NCBI GenBank assembly: GCA_045644925.1
Contig: JAZRHV010000024.1
Location: 10,472 to 74,471, forward strand
DNA length: 64,000 bases
Origin: Alistipes sp.
GTDB lineage: Bacteria > Bacteroidota > Bacteroidia > Bacteroidales > Rikenellaceae
Direction: 5' to 3'
Positions within the stretch are counted from its first letter, which is position 1, and each line of letters starts with the position of its first letter. The position numbers were made by a program, and so were the translations under genes. The notes under the pieces were generated by a model that saw nothing but the letters and a program-made list of their open reading frames with translations, did not search any database and was not told the origin of the DNA. Shown here in pieces: positions 9,892 through 33,468 of the stretch.

Positions 9892-10707
9892 CTAATACTG
9901 CTCTTTCTCGTTGGGGAAGTCGAGTGACTTGACATCCTCGACATACTGCGATACAGCATCGGTCATTACCGTATGCAGGTCGGCATAGCGACGCAGGAAT
10001 CGGGGCGAGAAGCCCTTGTTGATGCCGAGCATATCGTGGATTACAAGCACCTGGCCGTCGCATCCCGCACCGGCTCCGATGCCAATAGTCGGAACGGTCA
10101 GCTCCTGCGACACGCGCGTAGCGAGCGCAGCGGGAATCTTTTCGAGAACAATAGCAAAGCAGCCGGCCTCCTCCAAAAGGTGTGCATCGCGAACCAATTT
10201 CTCGGCCTCGGCCTCCTCCTTGGCGCGTACCGAGTAGGTGCCGAACTTGTGAATCGACTGCGGTGTCAGTCCGAGGTGTCCCATCACGGGGATACCTGCC
10301 GAAAGGATGCGCTGTACCGATTCGAGAATCTCCTCGCCACCCTCCATCTTGATAGCATCAGCCTCGGTCTCCTTCATAATGCGGATAGCCGAGTCGAGGG
10401 CGGTCTTTGAGTTGCCCTGATATGTTCCAAAGGGGAGATCGACAACCACCAGCGCGCGCTTTACGCCGCGAACAACTGCGCGAGCGTGGTAAATCATAGC
10501 ATCGAGCGTGATGGGGAGGGTCGATTCGTAACCGGCCATTACATTGGCTGCCGAATCACCGACCAAGATAACGTCAATACCTGCATTATCAACGATTTTC
10601 GCCATCGAAAAGTCGTAAGAGGTGAGCATCGCAATCTTCTCACCGCGTTGTTTCATCTCCGTCAGGCGGAGGGTCGTCACAGGACGAACAGTGCTTTCTA
10701 CCGACAT
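9892..10707 (-). CDS. panB: 3-methyl-2-oxobutanoate hydroxymethyltransferase
   Basis: [45 protein letters not shown]. Confidence 0.96.
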
Positions 10708-10735: not shown

Positions 10736-11272
10736 TTATCGCTTTAATCCGATTTGGCAAAAGAAATCCCACAAAACCACTCCTCCGCTCACTGAAACAT
10801 TGAGCGAGTGCTTGGTACCGAACTGAGGAATCTCGATTGCTCCGTCACACATATCGACCACCTCTTGATCGACGCCCATAACCTCGTTGCCGAAAATTAT
10901 GGCATATTTTACACCCTCCTCGGCGCGGAATTGGTCGAGCATCACGGCTCCCTCGACCTGCTCGATAGCGAGGATGCGATAACCCTCCGAGCGCAGATGT
11001 TCGACGCACTCGACGGTCGTGGGGTAGTAGCTCCACGCCACGCTCTCCTCGGCTCCGAGGGCGGTCTTGTGAATCTCGCGGTTGGGCGGAGTTGAAGTGA
11101 TGCCGCAGAGGGCGATATGCTCGATTGCAAAGGCATCTCCCGTGCGGAAGAACGAACCCACATTTTGTGCCGAGCGGACGTTATCCAAGATGACAGTTAC
11201 GCCCGTTTTTGCCTGCGTGGCAAACTCTTCGAGCGAAGGTCGATTGAGTTCTGCGTTAGTAATTTTTCTCAT
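10736..11272 (-). CDS. TrmH/SpoU family RNA methyltransferase
   Basis: [38 protein letters not shown]; likely ATG at 11272. Confidence 0.88.
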
Positions 11273-11371
11273 TGTTGCGAATCTTTGCTGCAAAAGTAAG
11301 AAAAATCAAAATATTTTAACTACTTTTGAGGTTGATTTGGGCGGTTTGGCCCTCGAAATGATAAACAAAGG

Positions 11372-12499
11372 ATGCTGAAAAGATTGTCGATACTGATTTT
11401 GTTCACATTCTTGGCTCTGCAATTTGCACAGGGTCAGGATGTTGCGCCCGCGCCTGCGTGTGAGAGCGCGTGTAGCGAGCAATCGGGAGCACTCTTTTTC
11501 GATGGCGAACTTTCAACCCACTTCGACAACGCAGAGTATGACGGCAACGATGTCGGCTACTCGCGAACTATTTTTGCCGTAAGATTGATCCCTGCCCTCG
11601 GCTACCGTTGGGGTAAGGATGGTTGCCACGCTGTGGTGGCAGGTGCCGAGCTTTTGAAAGATTTTGGCTCGGTGCGAACTATCGACGATGCAAAGTTGGT
11701 GGCATACTACCGCTATAAGGACCAAAATTGGGGTGCGTATGCCGGAATCTTCGGTCGAGATGAGTTGGTGGGTCGCTACTCGCGAGCATTCTATTCGGAT
11801 TCGACTCGTATTTACAATGCTTTGGTGCAGGGTGTGGCCGGTCACTACCGCTCGGAGAAGATGTTTGCTGAGTTGGCGGTCGATTGGCATGGCCTCTACT
11901 CGCCTGAGGTGCGCGAGAAGTTCCGCGTCCTGACTTCGGTGGGAGGTAAGTTCGCGAAGTGGTTTGATGCGGGCGTGACGTTGTCGCTTACGCACTACGC
12001 CAATAAATCGACTTTCCGCGGAAACGTGGTTGATAATGCGCTGGGTAACGCCTGGATTGGTGCGCAATTCAAGGCCTTCTTTGACTTTGATGTTAGATTG
12101 GGCTATCTGCAAGCTCTGCAACGCGACCGCAAGGTCTCCGACAGCTGGCTTGCTCCGAAGGGTGGCGAACTCTATGTTAGGCTGTCGAAGTGGGGTGCGT
12201 TTATTGACAATAACCTCTATGTTGGCGAGAATTTGATGCCGCTCTACGAGGTGTGCGGAAACGACGGTTTGAACTATGCGGATGACCTATATGCTGGCGA
12301 CATAACGTATTCCCCCCCCCGAAAATTTTGTAATAGGACGGGATTAGGATATGAACGCACGTTTTGTAAAGAGAGCCTCTCGGTCAAGGCCGAGGTGGCA
12401 CTGATATATATGGGCGGCAAGGTGTCAAACCAGCAACTTGTGGGCATATCGGCTCGATTTGCTCCGACAATTTACGATAAATCGAAACACAAAAAATAG
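11372..12499 (+). CDS. hypothetical outer-membrane (beta-barrel-like) protein
   Basis: Signal peptide and alternating aromatic/Gly strands; no family recognised. Contains a C9 tract at 12312-12320. Confidence 0.6.
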
Positions 12500-12512
12500 A
12501 TATTTTACTTTT

Positions 12513-14198
12513 ATGAGTATGGTAACTGCAACCAATGAGACACGAGAGAAGTCGCTGAACTTCCTCGAAGAGATTATCGAAGAGTCTATCGCCAAGGGCG
12601 AAACGCGAGTGCAAACCCGTTTCCCGCCCGAACCGAATGGCTATCTGCATATCGGACACGCAAAGAGTATCTGCATCAACTTCGGTTTGGCGAAGAAGTA
12701 TGGCGGTCTTTGCAACCTCCGTTTTGACGATACAAACCCCGTGAAGGAGGATGTTGAGTATGTTGATTCGATTAAGCGCGATATCCAATGGCTCGGATTC
12801 CAGTGGGCTGTTGAGCGTTACGCTTCGGACTACTTCGACCAGCTCTACGATTGGGCTGTCGAGTTGATTAAGAAGGGTCTCGCGTACGTCGATGACCAAA
12901 CTCAGGAGCAGATCCGCGAGGGTCGTGGTACCGTTTCGGTGCCGGGTACCGAGTCTCCGTGGCGTAACCGCTCGGTCGAGGAGAATCTCGACCTGTTTGA
13001 GCGTATGAAGGCCGGCGAGTTCGCTGATGGCGAGAAGGTGTTGCGTGCCAAGATTGATATGGCTCACCCCAATATGCTCTTCCGCGACCCGATTATGTAT
13101 CGTATTCTCCACACCGAGCATCACCGCACAGGCGATAAGTGGTGTATCTACCCGATGTACGACTACGCACACGGTCAGAGCGACTCTATTGAGAAGATTA
13201 CTCACTCGATTTGTACCCTCGAATTTGATGTTCACCGTCCGCTCTACGATTGGTTTATCGAGGCTCTGGATATCTATCCCTCGCATCAGTACGAGTTTGC
13301 GCGTCTGAACTTGACCTATACAATGATGTCGAAGCGTAACCTTCTGAAACTTGTGAATGAGGGCGCAGTTATGGGTTGGGACGACCCCCGAATGCCGACT
13401 ATCTGCGCACTGCGTCGTAAGGGTTACACTCCCGCATCGGTGCGAGCTTTTGCCGAGATGGTGGGTGTCGCAAAGCGTGATAACGTGATTGACCTCGGTA
13501 AGTTGGAGTTCTGTGTGCGTGAGGATTTGAATAAGGTTGCCGAGCGTCGTATGGCTGTGCTCAACCCAATTAAGGTTGTGATTACCAACTGGGAGGAGGG
13601 TAAGGTCGAGATGCGCAAGGCTGTAAATAACCCTGAGGACGAGGCCGCAGGTATGCGCGAGGTGCCGTTTGGTCGCGAGCTCTACATCGAGCGCGATGAC
13701 TTTATGGAGAATCCTCCGAAAAAGTATTTCCGCTTGCAGCCGGGTGGAGAGGTGCGCCTGCGCTATGCTTACCTTATCAAGTGCGAGGAGGTTATCAAGG
13801 ATGCGGAGGGCAACGTGGTTGAGTTGCGTTGTACCTACGACCCGCTCTCGGGCGAGGGCTCGTCGAGCGACGGCCGTCGTGTGAAGGGTGTAATCCATTG
13901 GGTATCGGCAGAACACGCTGTCGAGGCCGAGGTACGCCTCTTTAATCCCTTGTTCGTGACCGAGGATCCGAACGATAGCAGCAACGGCCAGACTTCGTGG
14001 GAGGATAATCTCAATCCCGAATCAATGATCAAGACTACGGCGTGGTTGGAGCCCGCATTGGCTACGCAGGAGGTAGGCAAGACCGTTCAGTTCGAGCGTG
14101 TAGGCTACTTCTGTCCCGATACAGACTCTACGCCCGAGCACCTTGTATTCAACCGTACGGTTACGCTCAAAGATTCGTGGGCAAAGATGAATAAGTAA
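12513..14198 (+). CDS. glnS: glutamine--tRNA ligase
   Basis: [34 protein letters not shown]; ATG at 12513 or 12519. Confidence 0.96.
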
Positions 14199-29432: not shown

Positions 29433-29507
29433 CGGGGTGTAGCGCAGTCCGGTTAGCGCGCCAGCTTCGGGAGTTGGAGGTCGCTGGTTCGAATCCAGTC
29501 TCCCCGA
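29433..29507 (+). tRNA. tRNA-Pro(CGG)
   Basis: CGGGGTGTAGCGCAGTCCGGTTAGCGCG CCAGC-TTCGGGA-GTTGG ...GGTTCGAATCCAGTCTCCCCGA. Confidence 0.93.
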
Positions 29508-29736
29508 CAAATCAGAGAGCAGCAGAGTTTAGAACTCTGCTGTTTTTGTTTTGCTTGTGCCGTTCTGCAAGCAGTCCGCACCCGCCAAACAAAAACACCG
29601 CCCTGCGGTCTGCTCTCTGCTTTTGGGTGAGGTTGGTATTCTTGGATTTCTGGTTGAGCGAACAGGGTGTTTGTCGATTGCTCGGTCTGCGACCTGCGCT
29701 TATAATTTCAGCGGTTGTTCGCTCTTCGGCTTTGCC

Positions 29737-29966
29737 GTTCGAATCCAGTCTCCCCGACAAAGTTAGATGCAAAACTTCCAGATGTAATCTGGGAGTTTTG
29801 TTGTTATTTTGGAGGCTTATGCTTGCATAAAGACGAGAAGATAACAACAAAATTTTGCTTGCAAATAAGTTCTGCATTTAACTTTGTAATCTTGCAAAGG
29901 GGCATATCTGGAAAGGCGTAGCGTAGTAGGCGCAGCCTACGGAGTAGCCAATTCGTCTCCCCGACA
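29737..29966 (+). repeat. downstream copies of the tRNA-Pro(CGG) 3' end (att-like)
   Basis: 25-bp GTTCGAATCCAGTCTCCCCGACAAA at 29737-29761 is identical to 29487-29511; 12-bp GTCTCCCCGACA at 29955-29966. Confidence 0.85.
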
Positions 29967-30163
29967 CCCCCCCCCAAAAAAAACATTGGGGAGCTTGAAC
30001 TGCGCAGCAGTCGCACGGATACTAAATAAAAAAAGAAGACAACCTTTCGATTGTCTTCTTCAGTACCCCCTCAGGGGCTGTCCAATGACGAAAATCGTGC
30101 GCGTACAGCGCGTATTTCAACGATGTAGGTTCAACACTTTTGTCGCATTTTGTCGCAATGGGT

Positions 30164-32140
30164 TTATAGCGATATAGAATCTAAAATCTGAGAACTTTCT
30201 AAACGCATGGCTAGTGAACGCTGTACTCTACCTGAAATTTGTTTAATCACCTCTGAATTTGGAATGTAAACCATAATATTAGCAAGGTCTTTATCTGATA
30301 AACTTGGGATTGCAGCACCAGTTCTATACATCATTACTTGCTGTAAAAACAAATTACTTCGCAAATAGAAGAGGAGGTAGTATTTGTCAATTTTAGGATT
30401 ACGCAATACTCTCAATCCATTGGTACAGATGCAATCTTCATGTCGTTTTGTTACAATTGCAGATGCGTGTTTCTCTGTGCCGATAGAATTACCTGCGACG
30501 GCTGTAATAATGTCAGACTCCTGTAATTCATAAGAGGCTCTACTTGGTAATTCGTGAACTTTATAATTTGTAGAATTAATAATTTCTAATGAGTGAGCAT
30601 TAATATCTGAAAGCTCTACATATTCCACATCAAGTTCTTTATTCTTTAATTTGGGGCTCTTGGTTTTTACAATATCAACAACATCACCAAGCTTAACTGA
30701 TGATGCAGATATTTTGTTTAATATGTCATGATTAGCAGGAGAATAAAAATCGTAATCCAAACGACTAGTCAATTCGTTGTAATCCACAACATATGATAAG
30801 CTATCAAAAGAGCGACATCCGTTCAATTTATATTGTTTATAATCAGCTAATACATTCGTGAAATCCTCATCAATGATTGGCGTCCCATTTTTCAGTACGA
30901 TATTACCCAACTTATCCTTTCGGTAAATTGGTGTTCCATTTTTGTTTCCTTGATAACCTAACTTCGTTATTTTGCCAAAGAATAGTGGATACTCTAAATC
31001 ATAATTTAATGTTTGTTTTTCCAAGAACAATAACGAAGTCTTTACACCCGTACCATATGGAATAAATGTTTCTTGAGGCAAATTTACTACTCCTAATATT
31101 TTAGCCTTCTGCTTTATATAGTACCTCAAATAATCCAACGACGGATTCTCAAAATGTCCATTAGGTAAAACAATACCCATTCGACCGCCTTCTTTTAACA
31201 ATTGCAAACATCGTTCGATAAACAATATCTCAGCAGGCTGGCCATTACTAAGCGTCTTTGTTTTGACACATATATTCCCATCTGATTTCCATTTATATCC
31301 CATATCATACTTGTGTAGAATATATGGATCTGTAATCTTCCCTGATGTTCCAAATGGAGGATTAGTTAATAAAATATCAAACCCCTCAAATTTTGAATTA
31401 CTTTGTGCATTAATCTGTAATTGCAATGTGTCAATATCATCAAGAGAATTGCTACATATAATATTATTAGGGGTATTAGCTTCTAGCAACAACTTCATTT
31501 TTGCAATTTTAGCTATATCCTTATTAATATCAATACCACACAAACTGCTGGCTATAAACGAATTACTATCAAAGTTCTGGTTGTGAGTTTGCAAATATTT
31601 AAGTGTTGAATACAAAAAACCGCCACTACCGCAACATGGATCTATAATAGTTTCATGAGGCTGTGGATCTATCATCTTTACACAAAAATTTATAACAGGC
31701 TGTGGTGTGAAAAATTGTCCCCTGCCTTCTTTTTCGTGATGTGATAGGAATTTTTGGAAAGCCAATCCACTTGCATCGTTTGAGTCATTGACAAGGTTTA
31801 CATGTTGCAGTTTATTAACAATAAACGACAATGTCTTGCTAGACATATTTAACGAATCTGACTCCTCAAATATGTCTTGGTATTCTTGTTTTGCAAATTG
31901 GAAAAGTGTAATAATTCTCCTTGAAACATCCTCTGAATGATGAGTCAGTTCTGCTGCTGTAATATAGAATTGTTGTGTACTCTGATTCTCATCAAAGATT
32001 TTAATGAACAGAATTTTTATAAATTCGTTCAATGTTTGATGAGAAGAGAGCCCTTCATTAGCGTATATATAATCATGGATTTCCTCAAATCGCCGTAAAA
32101 GGCTCTCTCCTACTCTTAAATGTGTATTATTACTTTTCAT
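30164..32140 (-). CDS. N6-adenine DNA methyltransferase, HsdM-like, fused to one HsdS-like specificity domain
   Basis: GQFFTP, DPCCGSGGF (motif I), NPPF (motif IV); C-terminal VKLGDVV..ELSDI..LPSRA..TGAAIPSL TRD-like region. Confidence 0.85.
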   Translation of the reverse strand: MKSNNTHLRVGESLLRRFEEIHDYIYANEGLSSHQTLNEFIKILFIKIFDENQSTQQFYITAAELTHHSEDVSRRIITLFQFAKQEYQDIFEESDSLNMSSKTLSFIVNKLQHVNLVNDSNDASGLAFQKFLSHHEKEGRGQFFTPQPVINFCVKMIDPQPHETIIDPCCGSGGFLYSTLKYLQTHNQNFDSNSFIASSLCGIDINKDIAKIAKMKLLLEANTPNNIICSNSLDDIDTLQLQINAQSNSKFEGFDILLTNPPFGTSGKITDPYILHKYDMGYKWKSDGNICVKTKTLSNGQPAEILFIERCLQLLKEGGRMGIVLPNGHFENPSLDYLRYYIKQKAKILGVVNLPQETFIPYGTGVKTSLLFLEKQTLNYDLEYPLFFGKITKLGYQGNKNGTPIYRKDKLGNIVLKNGTPIIDEDFTNVLADYKQYKLNGCRSFDSLSYVVDYNELTSRLDYDFYSPANHDILNKISASSVKLGDVVDIVKTKSPKLKNKELDVEYVELSDINAHSLEIINSTNYKVHELPSRASYELQESDIITAVAGNSIGTEKHASAIVTKRHEDCICTNGLRVLRNPKIDKYYLLFYLRSNLFLQQVMMYRTGAAIPSLSDKDLANIMVYIPNSEVIKQISGRVQRSLAMRLESSQILDSISL

Positions 32141-32196
32141 GGTAATATTGTTTCATTTCCGAGTCAAAGATAATACACATTTGTGTAATATGCAAA

Positions 32197-33138
32197 TCAT
32201 CTTCTGTCTAATTGCGACTTATCAAGTTTTCTTGCCTTAGGTTTAGTCTCTTTAATACACATATCAAGATCTATATACCAAGGTTTTAGCAGGGGATGAA
32301 GTTTAAATTCTTCTTTCTCCACCAAAATATCGATAGTGTAATTTTGTTGCAAATGGTTGGGAGCCTTAGCTTGATGGTTTAGATCTTGACTATTTACAAA
32401 TACAAATTCATGTTTCCCTGTGCGCAAAAATAGATCAAGGCAAAGAATATTGAATTCTGACACCAATGGTCCCGTACTCTTTATATTTAATTCATCTGTT
32501 CGAGTAGATGGCATGTGTGTTTGGATAAGACGGATTGGAGCTTTAAGATCCCAATATGCATCTTCTGTGTATTTATCATCTGCAAAGGTATCAAGCCATA
32601 TTTCTATTTCTTTCTTACTTTTCCACAAGTGAGATAGATCTGGGATACCTGCACCTGGGTTAGAGCTGCTCCACTTAAACTTTGGGAATTTATCTTTATC
32701 CCCTTTAAAAGTATTTTTAGCCTTTTCATAGGCATTTTGCCCCTTTTTGAAAATTTCCTTCAAGTGCTTTGTCCTATCAAAAGAATGCTTGGCAAGGAAT
32801 TTAGCCAATTTCTTTTTATCAGTAAACCCCAATCTTTTCTCAGAATTAGATTTAACACTTTTACACTCTACCACATACCATTCATCATTTGGATTACCTT
32901 TCTTACGAATATAAAAATCTCCGCGAGCATCATCTGTTTTAGCATTGTAACCTCCCTCGGGTTTTTCTTTAATTCGTAATACTTCATATCCGTTTTCTTC
33001 TGCATATCGCTTGAACAAGTTCTCTCCAATAGCGCCAAAAATATAACCTTCTGCTCCTGCACTAGTTTCAAGGACATCATACAGCATGTCTTCATCCACT
33101 CCAAATTTTCTTTTGGCTAAATCACTAAACTTTTCCAT
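32197..33138 (-). CDS. putative PD-(D/E)xK restriction endonuclease
   Basis: GAIGENLF helix, RGDFY, VVECKS; directly upstream of the MTase inside the islet. Confidence 0.6.
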   Translation of the reverse strand: MEKFSDLAKRKFGVDEDMLYDVLETSAGAEGYIFGAIGENLFKRYAEENGYEVLRIKEKPEGGYNAKTDDARGDFYIRKKGNPNDEWYVVECKSVKSNSEKRLGFTDKKKLAKFLAKHSFDRTKHLKEIFKKGQNAYEKAKNTFKGDKDKFPKFKWSSSNPGAGIPDLSHLWKSKKEIEIWLDTFADDKYTEDAYWDLKAPIRLIQTHMPSTRTDELNIKSTGPLVSEFNILCLDLFLRTGKHEFVFVNSQDLNHQAKAPNHLQQNYTIDILVEKEEFKLHPLLKPWYIDLDMCIKETKPKARKLDKSQLDRR

Positions 33139-33395
33139 ATCTCTTATATTATTATAAATTAATTAGACTTTGCGTAAAGATAGTGATTATTTCGTTACAG
33201 AGATACTGCAATGTAGAAGGAGTTTTAACAAAATAAGAAATGAACCTATTGGGACAAATTGTTAAATAGGTTCAGCATAGGTTCAACAAATGTTGCGGAG
33301 AGGTTTAATTTTGCCTAATTCCGCCACGGAACACCGCCAAACCAAGCGTATTTATACGAAAAAAGGACGAAAATCGTTGTGATTTCCGTCCTTCG

Positions 33396-33468
33396 TACCC
33401 CCTCAGGGGCTCGAACCCTGGACCCCAACATTAAGAGTGTCGTGCTCTACCAACTGAGCTAAAGAGGC
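33396..33468 (-). tRNA. tRNA-Lys(CUU)
   Basis: GCCTCTTTAGCTCAGTTGGTAGAGCACGACA-CTCTTAA-TGTTG...GGTTCGAGCCCCTGAGGGGGTA. Confidence 0.95.

Follow-up and report, generated by a model that had tools for sequence, protein, structure and literature searches.

A family of miniature cassettes without integrases carries unrelated, mostly restriction-modification cargo at tRNA-Lys in Rikenellaceae and may be moved in trans

Introduction

Cis-mobilizable elements (CIMEs), known from Streptococcus elements of the ICESt1/ICESt3 type and from accretion arrays, are bounded by attL and attR sites derived from the 3' end of a target gene, lack integrase and transfer genes, stand in tandem with other elements at the same site, and are proposed or shown to rely for mobility on the integrase of an incoming element (Guedon et al., 2017; PMC5704250). 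Here, we analyze a 3.35-kb islet at the tRNA-Lys gene of an Alistipes sp. genome (positions 30063-33411 of a 64,000-nucleotide stretch, hereafter the window, taken from positions 10,472 to 74,471 of contig JAZRHV010000024.1, assembly GCA_045644925.1). The islet belongs to a family of miniature cassettes whose ends are conserved while their cargo is unrelated, and we consider it fairly likely that this is a family of non-autonomous integrative cassettes moved in trans. Among described systems CIMEs appear to be the closest concept, with functional echoes of integron cassettes and pseudo-SCC (staphylococcal cassette chromosome) elements. The cassettes share with CIMEs the first three of these features, and a dependence on the integrase of an incoming element is likewise proposed for them. 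Unlike CIMEs, which are described as individual decay products derived from integrative and conjugative elements (ICEs) or integrative and mobilizable elements (IMEs) (PMC5704250), they occur about 40 times in one standard minimal format: a split attP of ~250 bp with terminator and promoter, coinciding cargo boundaries, and differing cargo that is nearly always a restriction-modification (R-M) system. Their hosts are Bacteroidota, and no autonomous parent was found.

Integron gene cassettes are also small, promoter-dependent, recombinase-less units that form arrays at one site, are exchanged between genomes and depend on a recombinase encoded elsewhere. The cassettes described here differ from them in having no attC hairpin, no attI/IntI platform and no shared Pc promoter; they have lambda-type, attP-like sites made of a tRNA-end core and arm repeats, and carry their own terminator and promoter region. 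An assignment as integron gene cassettes was rejected: the cassette end holds no imperfect inverted repeat resembling attC, and the arrays have no integrase beside them. Pseudo-SCC and SCC-like cassettes, which sit at rlmH (orfX) of staphylococci and enterococci, involve serine recombinases (Ccr) and a protein-gene target. Pseudo-SCC elements are likewise recombinase-less, flanked by direct repeats of a conserved gene's 3' end, stacked in tandem and reliant on the recombinases of a neighboring cassette, whereas SCC cargo is larger and heterogeneous and lacks conserved complex arms.

Two further groups of elements bear comparison. Integrase-only defense islands that target tRNA or tmRNA genes, and tycheposons, encode their own tyrosine integrase and span 10-50 kb (10.1101/2024.08.29.610337; 10.1101/2020.12.28.424599). 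They resemble the cassettes in their partial-tRNA repeats, defense cargo, stacking at tRNA hotspots and helper-dependent intercellular transfer, but the cassettes measure only 0.7-3.4 kb and have no recombinase. Mobile R-M units, with R-M gene pairs between direct repeats as here, include a tRNA-integrated unit with an integrase and a case of allelic substitution at one locus (Furuta, Abe and Kobayashi, 2010; PMC2853133). In contrast to the cassettes, R-M units at tRNA genes were previously known only with their own integrase, the other class of mobile R-M units has target duplications of more than 30 bp, and no conserved shared arms are described for them (PMC2853133). A literature search returned no earlier description of the cassette family.

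Results

The islet lies between exact copies of the tRNA-Lys 3' end

Genomes, loci and contigs are designated below by G, L and C numbers, respectively, G000 being the window's own genome (an assembly of 1.87 Mb with 50.4% GC overall). The attachment target is a tRNA-Lys gene with anticodon CTT (33395-33468, minus strand; ARAGORN); throughout the genus this gene shows 100% conservation. The proximal, attL-type core consists of its last 17 nt (33395-33411, minus strand; AGCCCCTGAGGGGGTAC in the tRNA sense), and an intact distal, attR-type core (30063-30079, minus strand) repeats this 3' end, with GTACCCCCTCAGGGGCT at both positions. The initial annotation had placed a 17-bp tRNA-Lys repeat at both ends of the islet, and the two copies are indeed exact. 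The core is therefore identical between element and tRNA 3' end, as in lambda-type attP/attB pairs. Between the core copies lie 3,315 bp of 32-36% GC, against 46-51% on either side; overall, the insert stands at 33% GC in a region of 48-50%, a composition that marks it as foreign.

A hairpin previously seen outside the distal repeat is present at 30032-30061 on the minus strand. Four other loci match, at 100% identity, a stretch of 32-35 nt that includes this hairpin and has its end at the distal core. In G178 the stretch immediately follows the tRNA-Lys core, and in G281, G177 and L169 it follows distal cores, so we regard the outer hairpin as the native tRNA-Lys terminator, displaced by the insertion. 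A second terminator hairpin, which is part of the insert, lies just inside the proximal core (33362-33394, minus strand). As in CIMEs, the 17-bp repeats and the displaced terminator correspond to attL and attR sites left by site-specific integration into a target 3' end, and the insert contains only two R-M genes and no integration or transfer genes.

Both inner ends of the islet carry repeated motifs. The conserved right arm, of P' type (33269-33394, minus strand), contains the replacement terminator hairpin and ends at a tandem pair of TGAACCTAT spaced 11 bp apart (33266-33274 and 33277-33285). It is 88-97% identical over 126 bp in ~14 other genomes, and the sequence of its hairpin differs between cassettes with the pairing retained. 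A cargo-specific leader follows (33139-33268, minus strand); it contains a third TGAACCTAT in inverted orientation (33241-33249) and, upstream of the nuclease gene, a promoter-like region that includes a sigma-70-like match at 33178-33151. This leader is common only to cassettes with the same R-M cargo (L056-L060). The P-type left arm (30080-30166, minus strand) contains two tandem copies of TGCGACAAAA (30138-30157), GTTGAACCTA (30126-30135) and a core-proximal segment with GACGAAAATCGT (30087-30098). Over its first 37-41 nt, other cassettes show 94-100% identity. The core-proximal 55 bp, a variant that we call type A, set the window cassette apart and recur in G006:C31, where the whole left arm is 95% identical beside different cargo.

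The short motifs that had been pointed out at the inner ends were all recovered at their positions: TAGGTTCAAC at 30126 and 33278, GACGAAAATCGT at 30087 and 33366, ATAGGTTCA at 33266 and again at 33277, accompanied by an inverted TGAACCTAT (33241), and the tandem TTTTGTCGCA at 30138-30157. Across the whole 1.87-Mb genome, TAGGTTCAAC (two copies), GACGAAAATCGT (two) and ATAGGTTCA (three) occur only at the islet ends. In the window, TGAACCTAT has three matches against 0.38 expected after shuffling and TGCGACAAAA three, two of them the tandem pair, against 0.19, which places both 8- to 15-fold above expectation. With GAACC(TA) twice in the right arm, and TGCGACAAAA and GAACCTA twice each in the left arm, the ends have the appearance of arm-type integrase sites, and these repeated motifs are conserved across cassettes and unique within the G000 genome. 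The least secure of them as a recombination site is GACGAAAATCGT; its right-hand copy forms the descending strand in the hairpin of the cassette's tRNA terminator, and the match between the two ends is limited to the type A left-arm variant (window and G006).

Conserved arms enclose unrelated cargo

We then looked at the distribution of the arms. The right arm (first 126 bp inside the proximal core) has strong matches in ~20 of 376 genus genomes, the left arm with its core (94 bp) is found in 29 of them, and either arm in ~38, about a tenth. Further matches come from a Tidjanibacter metagenome-assembled genome (MAG) and from metagenome contigs. Records with arm matches are labelled Alistipes sp. 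or Rikenellaceae bacterium at NCBI, and the MAGs derive mainly from cattle, sheep and yak hindgut.

Thirteen cassettes could be delimited with both arms. They measure 0.7-3.4 kb, have 34-39% GC, and all carry cargo co-directional with the tRNA. Their layout in the tRNA sense is core, terminator hairpin, GAACC-repeat right arm, cargo, left arm (two TGCGACAAAA and two GAACCTA) and second core; when left arm, core and right arm are joined, the alignment extends over ~250 bp and includes long conserved blocks. The right arm of most cassettes runs on through a third GAACC repeat to a TAnnTTTG box, a putative Bacteroidetes-type promoter box, immediately ahead of the cargo start codon and at the position that aligns with the window leader. 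Arms are ~88-100% identical between cassettes, and the cargo boundaries coincide in nearly all.

The initial annotation had proposed a swappable defense slot, and alternative cargo does lie between the same ends: the 13 delimited cassettes hold at least 11 unrelated cargo sets, almost always an R-M system. These comprise DpnII (Dam, DpnII and DpnA), HaeIII, HincII, MvaI/BcnI, an IceA/NlaIII-type system with two methylases, an MjaI-like system in two variants, a single-chain HSDR_N and N6_Mtase enzyme (type IIG-like), an N4/N6 methylase with an unknown protein, a 134-aa orphan, two DUF488 genes with DuOB (dual OB), and the window's pair of a nuclease and a methylase-specificity fusion. The trio of two DUF488 genes and DuOB replaces the R-M system in the G100 cassette (G100:C6, L095 10159-12163); judged by the company it keeps, it may be an uncharacterized defense system.

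At the distal core position most sister cassettes have ACCCCCTGAGGGGGTAC or decayed variants of it, and most distal cores carry the same G-to-C variant at position 2 (ACCCCC...). Such a shared variant fits the expectation that the distal side comes from the element.

Cassettes recently spread across divergent species and reached sites other than tRNA genes

Exact-protein look-ups located other copies of the window's cassette. L056 is 98-99% identical to the window at the DNA level from the tRNA through the methylase gene, and its upstream neighbor has only 39% protein identity to the window's GH2-like gene. This contrast indicates that the cassette was recently transferred horizontally, between divergent species, into the same tRNA. 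The L057 cassette is 99% identical; at its right end it adjoins a pseudo-tRNA end of 22 bp, upstream of which there is no tRNA. Identity is 84-88% for L058-L060, which lie in other contexts, with cores that are full, decayed or absent. None of the relatives compared was close enough to provide a syntenic empty site.

Contigs with homologues of the window's nuclease are mostly 3.0-4.8 kb long, about the size of a cassette. A search for circular islet-sized contigs found no terminal overlaps in L056-L060, and assembly breaks at the repeated tRNA end seem to explain these lengths better. Since assemblies appear to break at cassette ends, as they do at multi-context repeats, cassettes are probably under-represented in binned genomes.

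Cassettes also stand in tandem (G006:C31, G154, L057 and L164), with left arm-core-right arm junctions in G154 and L164, and some are located away from tRNA-Lys. At the secondary site of G185a, hybrid junctions are consistent with a crossover inside GGGG/TAC of the core. In a second G154 locus (G154b; G154:C12, L093), a DpnII cassette lies inside the terminator of a rubrerythrin-like gene, where its flanks are a 16/17-bp direct repeat of the target's own sequence, ACCCGAGAGGGATRTAC, and not the tRNA core.

These data bear on a simpler explanation, in which the integrase of a larger prophage or ICE was deleted in this lineage, the islet is the immobile, decayed stump of that element, and the resemblance to other loci is due to vertical descent. 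Decay of this kind is the usual origin of CIMEs (PMC5704250); moreover, other att scars lie nearby (tRNA-Pro 3'-end repeats and a degenerate third core), and the genome holds a truncated integrase elsewhere. However, a search for an integrase-bearing parent with the same arms found none in 376 genus genomes, 185,579 species genomes and a metagenome scan, the points at which the arms meet unrelated cargo are the same, and the 98-99% DNA identity beside a 39%-identical neighbor excludes vertical descent. An iterative hidden Markov model search seeded with a tRNA-Lys-adjacent integrase detected no integrase in any fetched locus, and loci fetched later had none among their large open reading frames (ORFs). 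The initial annotation would have been overturned by relatives with a larger element that had merely lost its integrase and showed no cargo exchange; instead, no examined locus with these arms carries an integrase, and the cargo differs. As regards an origin from an ICE or IME, the searches yielded no parent element with these arms; the arm motifs are common to an integrase clade, whose element is prophage-like in one genome. The decayed stump is already largely refuted, and we regard it as very unlikely.

A tRNA-Lys-adjacent integrase clade shares the arm repeats

An element with the cassettes' motifs and an integrase of its own had been suggested as a search target, and one was identified. 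Integrases 58-81% identical to that of G012:C16 lie ~450 bp downstream of tRNA-Lys(CTT) in 12 genus genomes, and the repeats in their arms differ in step with the integrase subclade. TTGTCTA arm repeats are found in the 62% group; the arms of G012, G136 and G268 alone carry TTGTCG(C/T)A/TGCGACAA with two GAACCTA, that is, the repertoire of the cassettes. In the integrase-proximal arm of G012, CCATTGCGACATTATGCGACAAAAG lies ~70 bp from the core, a spacing also seen in cassettes. From these shared arm repeats and the adjacency to tRNA-Lys, the G012/G136/G268 clade of tyrosine integrases appears to be a candidate helper. The G268 element is prophage-like: by inspection only, its long ORFs look like genes for phage tails.

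A second element at this tRNA was excluded as helper. In the complete genome G011 (C1, 319060-409032), a ~90-kb element at tRNA-Lys(CTT) is bounded by the core and ACCCCCTGAGGGGGTAC, with an integrase directly after the tRNA; both of its arms use GGTTACGAA/CGTAACC repeats.

A conserved host recombinase could also move the cassettes, as XerCD moves integrative mobile elements exploiting Xer (IMEX). This would account for the missing integrase, none being present at any examined locus with these arms, and G000 does encode three Xer-like tyrosine recombinases. Nevertheless, no dif-like sequence is recognizable in the core or arms, and a dif/Xer-like reading of the core-proximal left arm proved unsupported. 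Furthermore, phage-type integrases typically target a tRNA 3' end, a mobile integrase clade has matching arm repeats, and the cassettes occur in only ~10% of genus genomes. We consider a host recombinase extremely improbable as the source of mobility.

The window cargo resembles a type II R-M system

The cargo consists of only two genes, as first annotated, both on the minus strand (30164-32140 and 32197-33138). The longer one (30164-32140) encodes a 658-aa N6-adenine DNA methyltransferase with a single target-recognition domain (M.S fusion). In Pfam, residues 125-379 match N6_Mtase (E 4e-36) and residues 481-640 match Methylase_S (E 6e-9), with Eco57I matched as well; the target-recognition domain is type-I-like. 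The best PADLOC class is MTase_II (type II methyltransferase; E 1e-79), and among PDB sequences the protein is closest to RM.BsaXI and type I M subunits. The protein thus combines the catalytic and target-recognition domains expected of a type II R-M methyltransferase. An exact-protein look-up of this methylase returned no record. It was also considered as part of a methylation-associated defense system (MADS) and rejected: the NCBIfam cut-offs are 720 bits for MAD2 and 400 for MAD5, the matches reach only 338 and 51, respectively, and there are no other mad genes.

The second gene (32197-33138) encodes a 313-aa predicted PD-(D/E)XK restriction endonuclease. It has no Pfam, NCBIfam or PADLOC match, and a profile search against PDB sequences gave nothing meaningful. 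The protein has 509 homologues, and in 35 sequences D74, E91 and K93 (D74...E91-x-K93) are invariant, on predicted beta-strands. Its AlphaFold2 model has a mean pLDDT of 85, and the weak Foldseek matches of this model are all nucleases, such as DrdV, Hjc and HinP1I, with a best E value of 0.06, which is not significant. In relatives with 64-70% identity, a small helix-turn-helix gene of the C-protein type overlaps the start of the nuclease gene and the same kind of methylase lies downstream, a classical C-R-M arrangement. We read the gene pair as a type II-like R-M system in which the 313-aa protein is probably a nuclease.

Small modules and other att scars surround tRNA genes

Gene-less modules of 105-140 bp lie between core copies in G012 (C16, L086 2836-2989), G313 (L106), G154 (L092), G100 (L095) and L059 (1-160), and a mini-module locus is also present in G268 (C50, L173). 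Their parts are a terminator, an inverted degenerate tRNA-Lys 3' end, a CCTCCC...GGGAGG hairpin, GTGTAAACTAAACGAGCA...GCGCAGTCG and a core. G013 has a 287-bp module between cores. In the window, the segment at 29985-30031 (minus strand), which ends in a degenerate third core, GCGCAGTTCAAGCTCCCC, may be the remnant of a further small module; by eye, it bears a weak likeness to the end of the 105-140-bp modules.

On the other side of the intergenic region, a tRNA-Pro(CGG) gene (29433-29508, plus strand) is convergent with tRNA-Lys. Its last 25 nt are repeated at 29738-29762 and 11 nt again at 29957-29967, and the first two copies of the tRNA-Pro end are each followed by a terminator hairpin of their own (29515-29547 and 29769-29801). 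The tRNA-Pro side thereby shows a core-plus-terminator architecture like that of the tRNA-Lys side, enclosing a gene-less module of ~250 bp. The two att-scar arrays join at a C8A8 tract at about 29969-29984.

Elsewhere in G000, contig C25 (~10868-14065; L005) carries the 126-aa C-terminal fragment of a Bacteroidota-type tyrosine integrase beside a gene whose sequence resembles BrxL, the Lon-like ATPase of bacteriophage exclusion (BREX) systems. Together they would be a second decayed defense island in this genome. A Methanophagales match (L160) was discarded; it corresponds to neither the arms nor the core and has the look of a fortuitous 19-mer.

Discussion

The interpretation that we favor is that each cassette would be a lambda-type attP of ~250 bp, split by integration, together with expression-ready cargo. 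On insertion, the core would restore the tRNA-Lys 3' end and the cassette would supply a replacement terminator for the tRNA. Integration and excision would be catalyzed in trans by a tyrosine integrase specific for tRNA-Lys(CTT), of the G012/G136/G268 clade, and cassettes would spread by co-excision or co-transfer when cassette and helper stand in tandem. We infer this mobilization in trans from the structure and distribution of the cassettes. Because G000 has no helper integrase, the window cassette is currently a fixed R-M locus with intact sites.

Several observations weigh against mobilization in trans or qualify it. Among species representatives, the helper clade was not found together with a cassette in any genome, which suggests that helper and cassette are not stably co-resident. 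G000 itself has only the three Xer-like recombinases and the 126-aa integrase fragment. The TGCGACAA/GAACCTA block of the helper elements lies mainly in the tRNA-proximal arm and that of the cassettes in the distal arm; with the exception of the G012 distal arm, helper and cassette arms therefore share motifs yet are not simple positional homologues. The distal core is decayed in many sister cassettes, by indels in its C and G runs. The repeat of target sequence around the G154b insertion is not predicted by a simple tyrosine-recombinase crossover, and the third, inverted TGAACCTAT of the window falls in a right-end portion common only to cassettes with this cargo. Finally, the arms and the tRNA offer ~120-210 bp of homology per side, long enough for allelic exchange that needs no integrase.

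Homologous exchange through the arms is a serious, if partial, rival. In its full form, cassettes would now spread and swap cargo by homologous recombination alone, with tRNA-Lys and right arm on one side and left arm and core on the other acting as homology arms after transformation, transduction or conjugative chromosome transfer, and the att-like features would be historical. Such exchange is consistent with arms that are 88-100% identical across species next to an invariant tRNA, with cargo boundaries that equal the ends of the conserved arms, with the frequency of decayed distal cores, and with the lack of a helper integrase in most cassette-bearing genomes; allelic substitution of R-M systems is documented elsewhere (PMC2853133). 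However, homologous recombination cannot fill an empty tRNA-Lys site, which offers homology on one side only. It also fails to explain non-tRNA insertions with hybrid junctions (G185a, G154b and L058), and it leaves unexplained the phased tandem arm repeats that match those of an integrase clade. As the sole mechanism we find it unlikely. Within the mechanism of mobilization in trans, homologous recombination through tRNA and arms may nonetheless contribute to cargo replacement at an occupied slot.

More tentatively, tRNA-Lys(CTT) in these Rikenellaceae might function as an integron-like slot without an integron, where a transient phage-type integrase captures, stacks and exchanges cassettes, for example when it is present during lysogeny by a tRNA-Lys-targeting temperate phage. 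If this possibility were true, phage infection itself would reshuffle the R-M repertoire of the host population.

The movement of R-M systems between genomes without obvious mobility genes is a long-standing puzzle, for which the cassette family provides a concrete and testable vehicle. A scaffold of ~250 bp resembling attP, which brings its own terminator and promoter region, makes any R-M operon addressable to a tRNA gene that is universally conserved. Should the helper integrase be confirmed, it would form with the arms a compact site-specific integration tool for hard-to-engineer Bacteroidota. In their natural hosts, the cassettes could account for strain-level differences in methylomes and in susceptibility to phages and plasmids.

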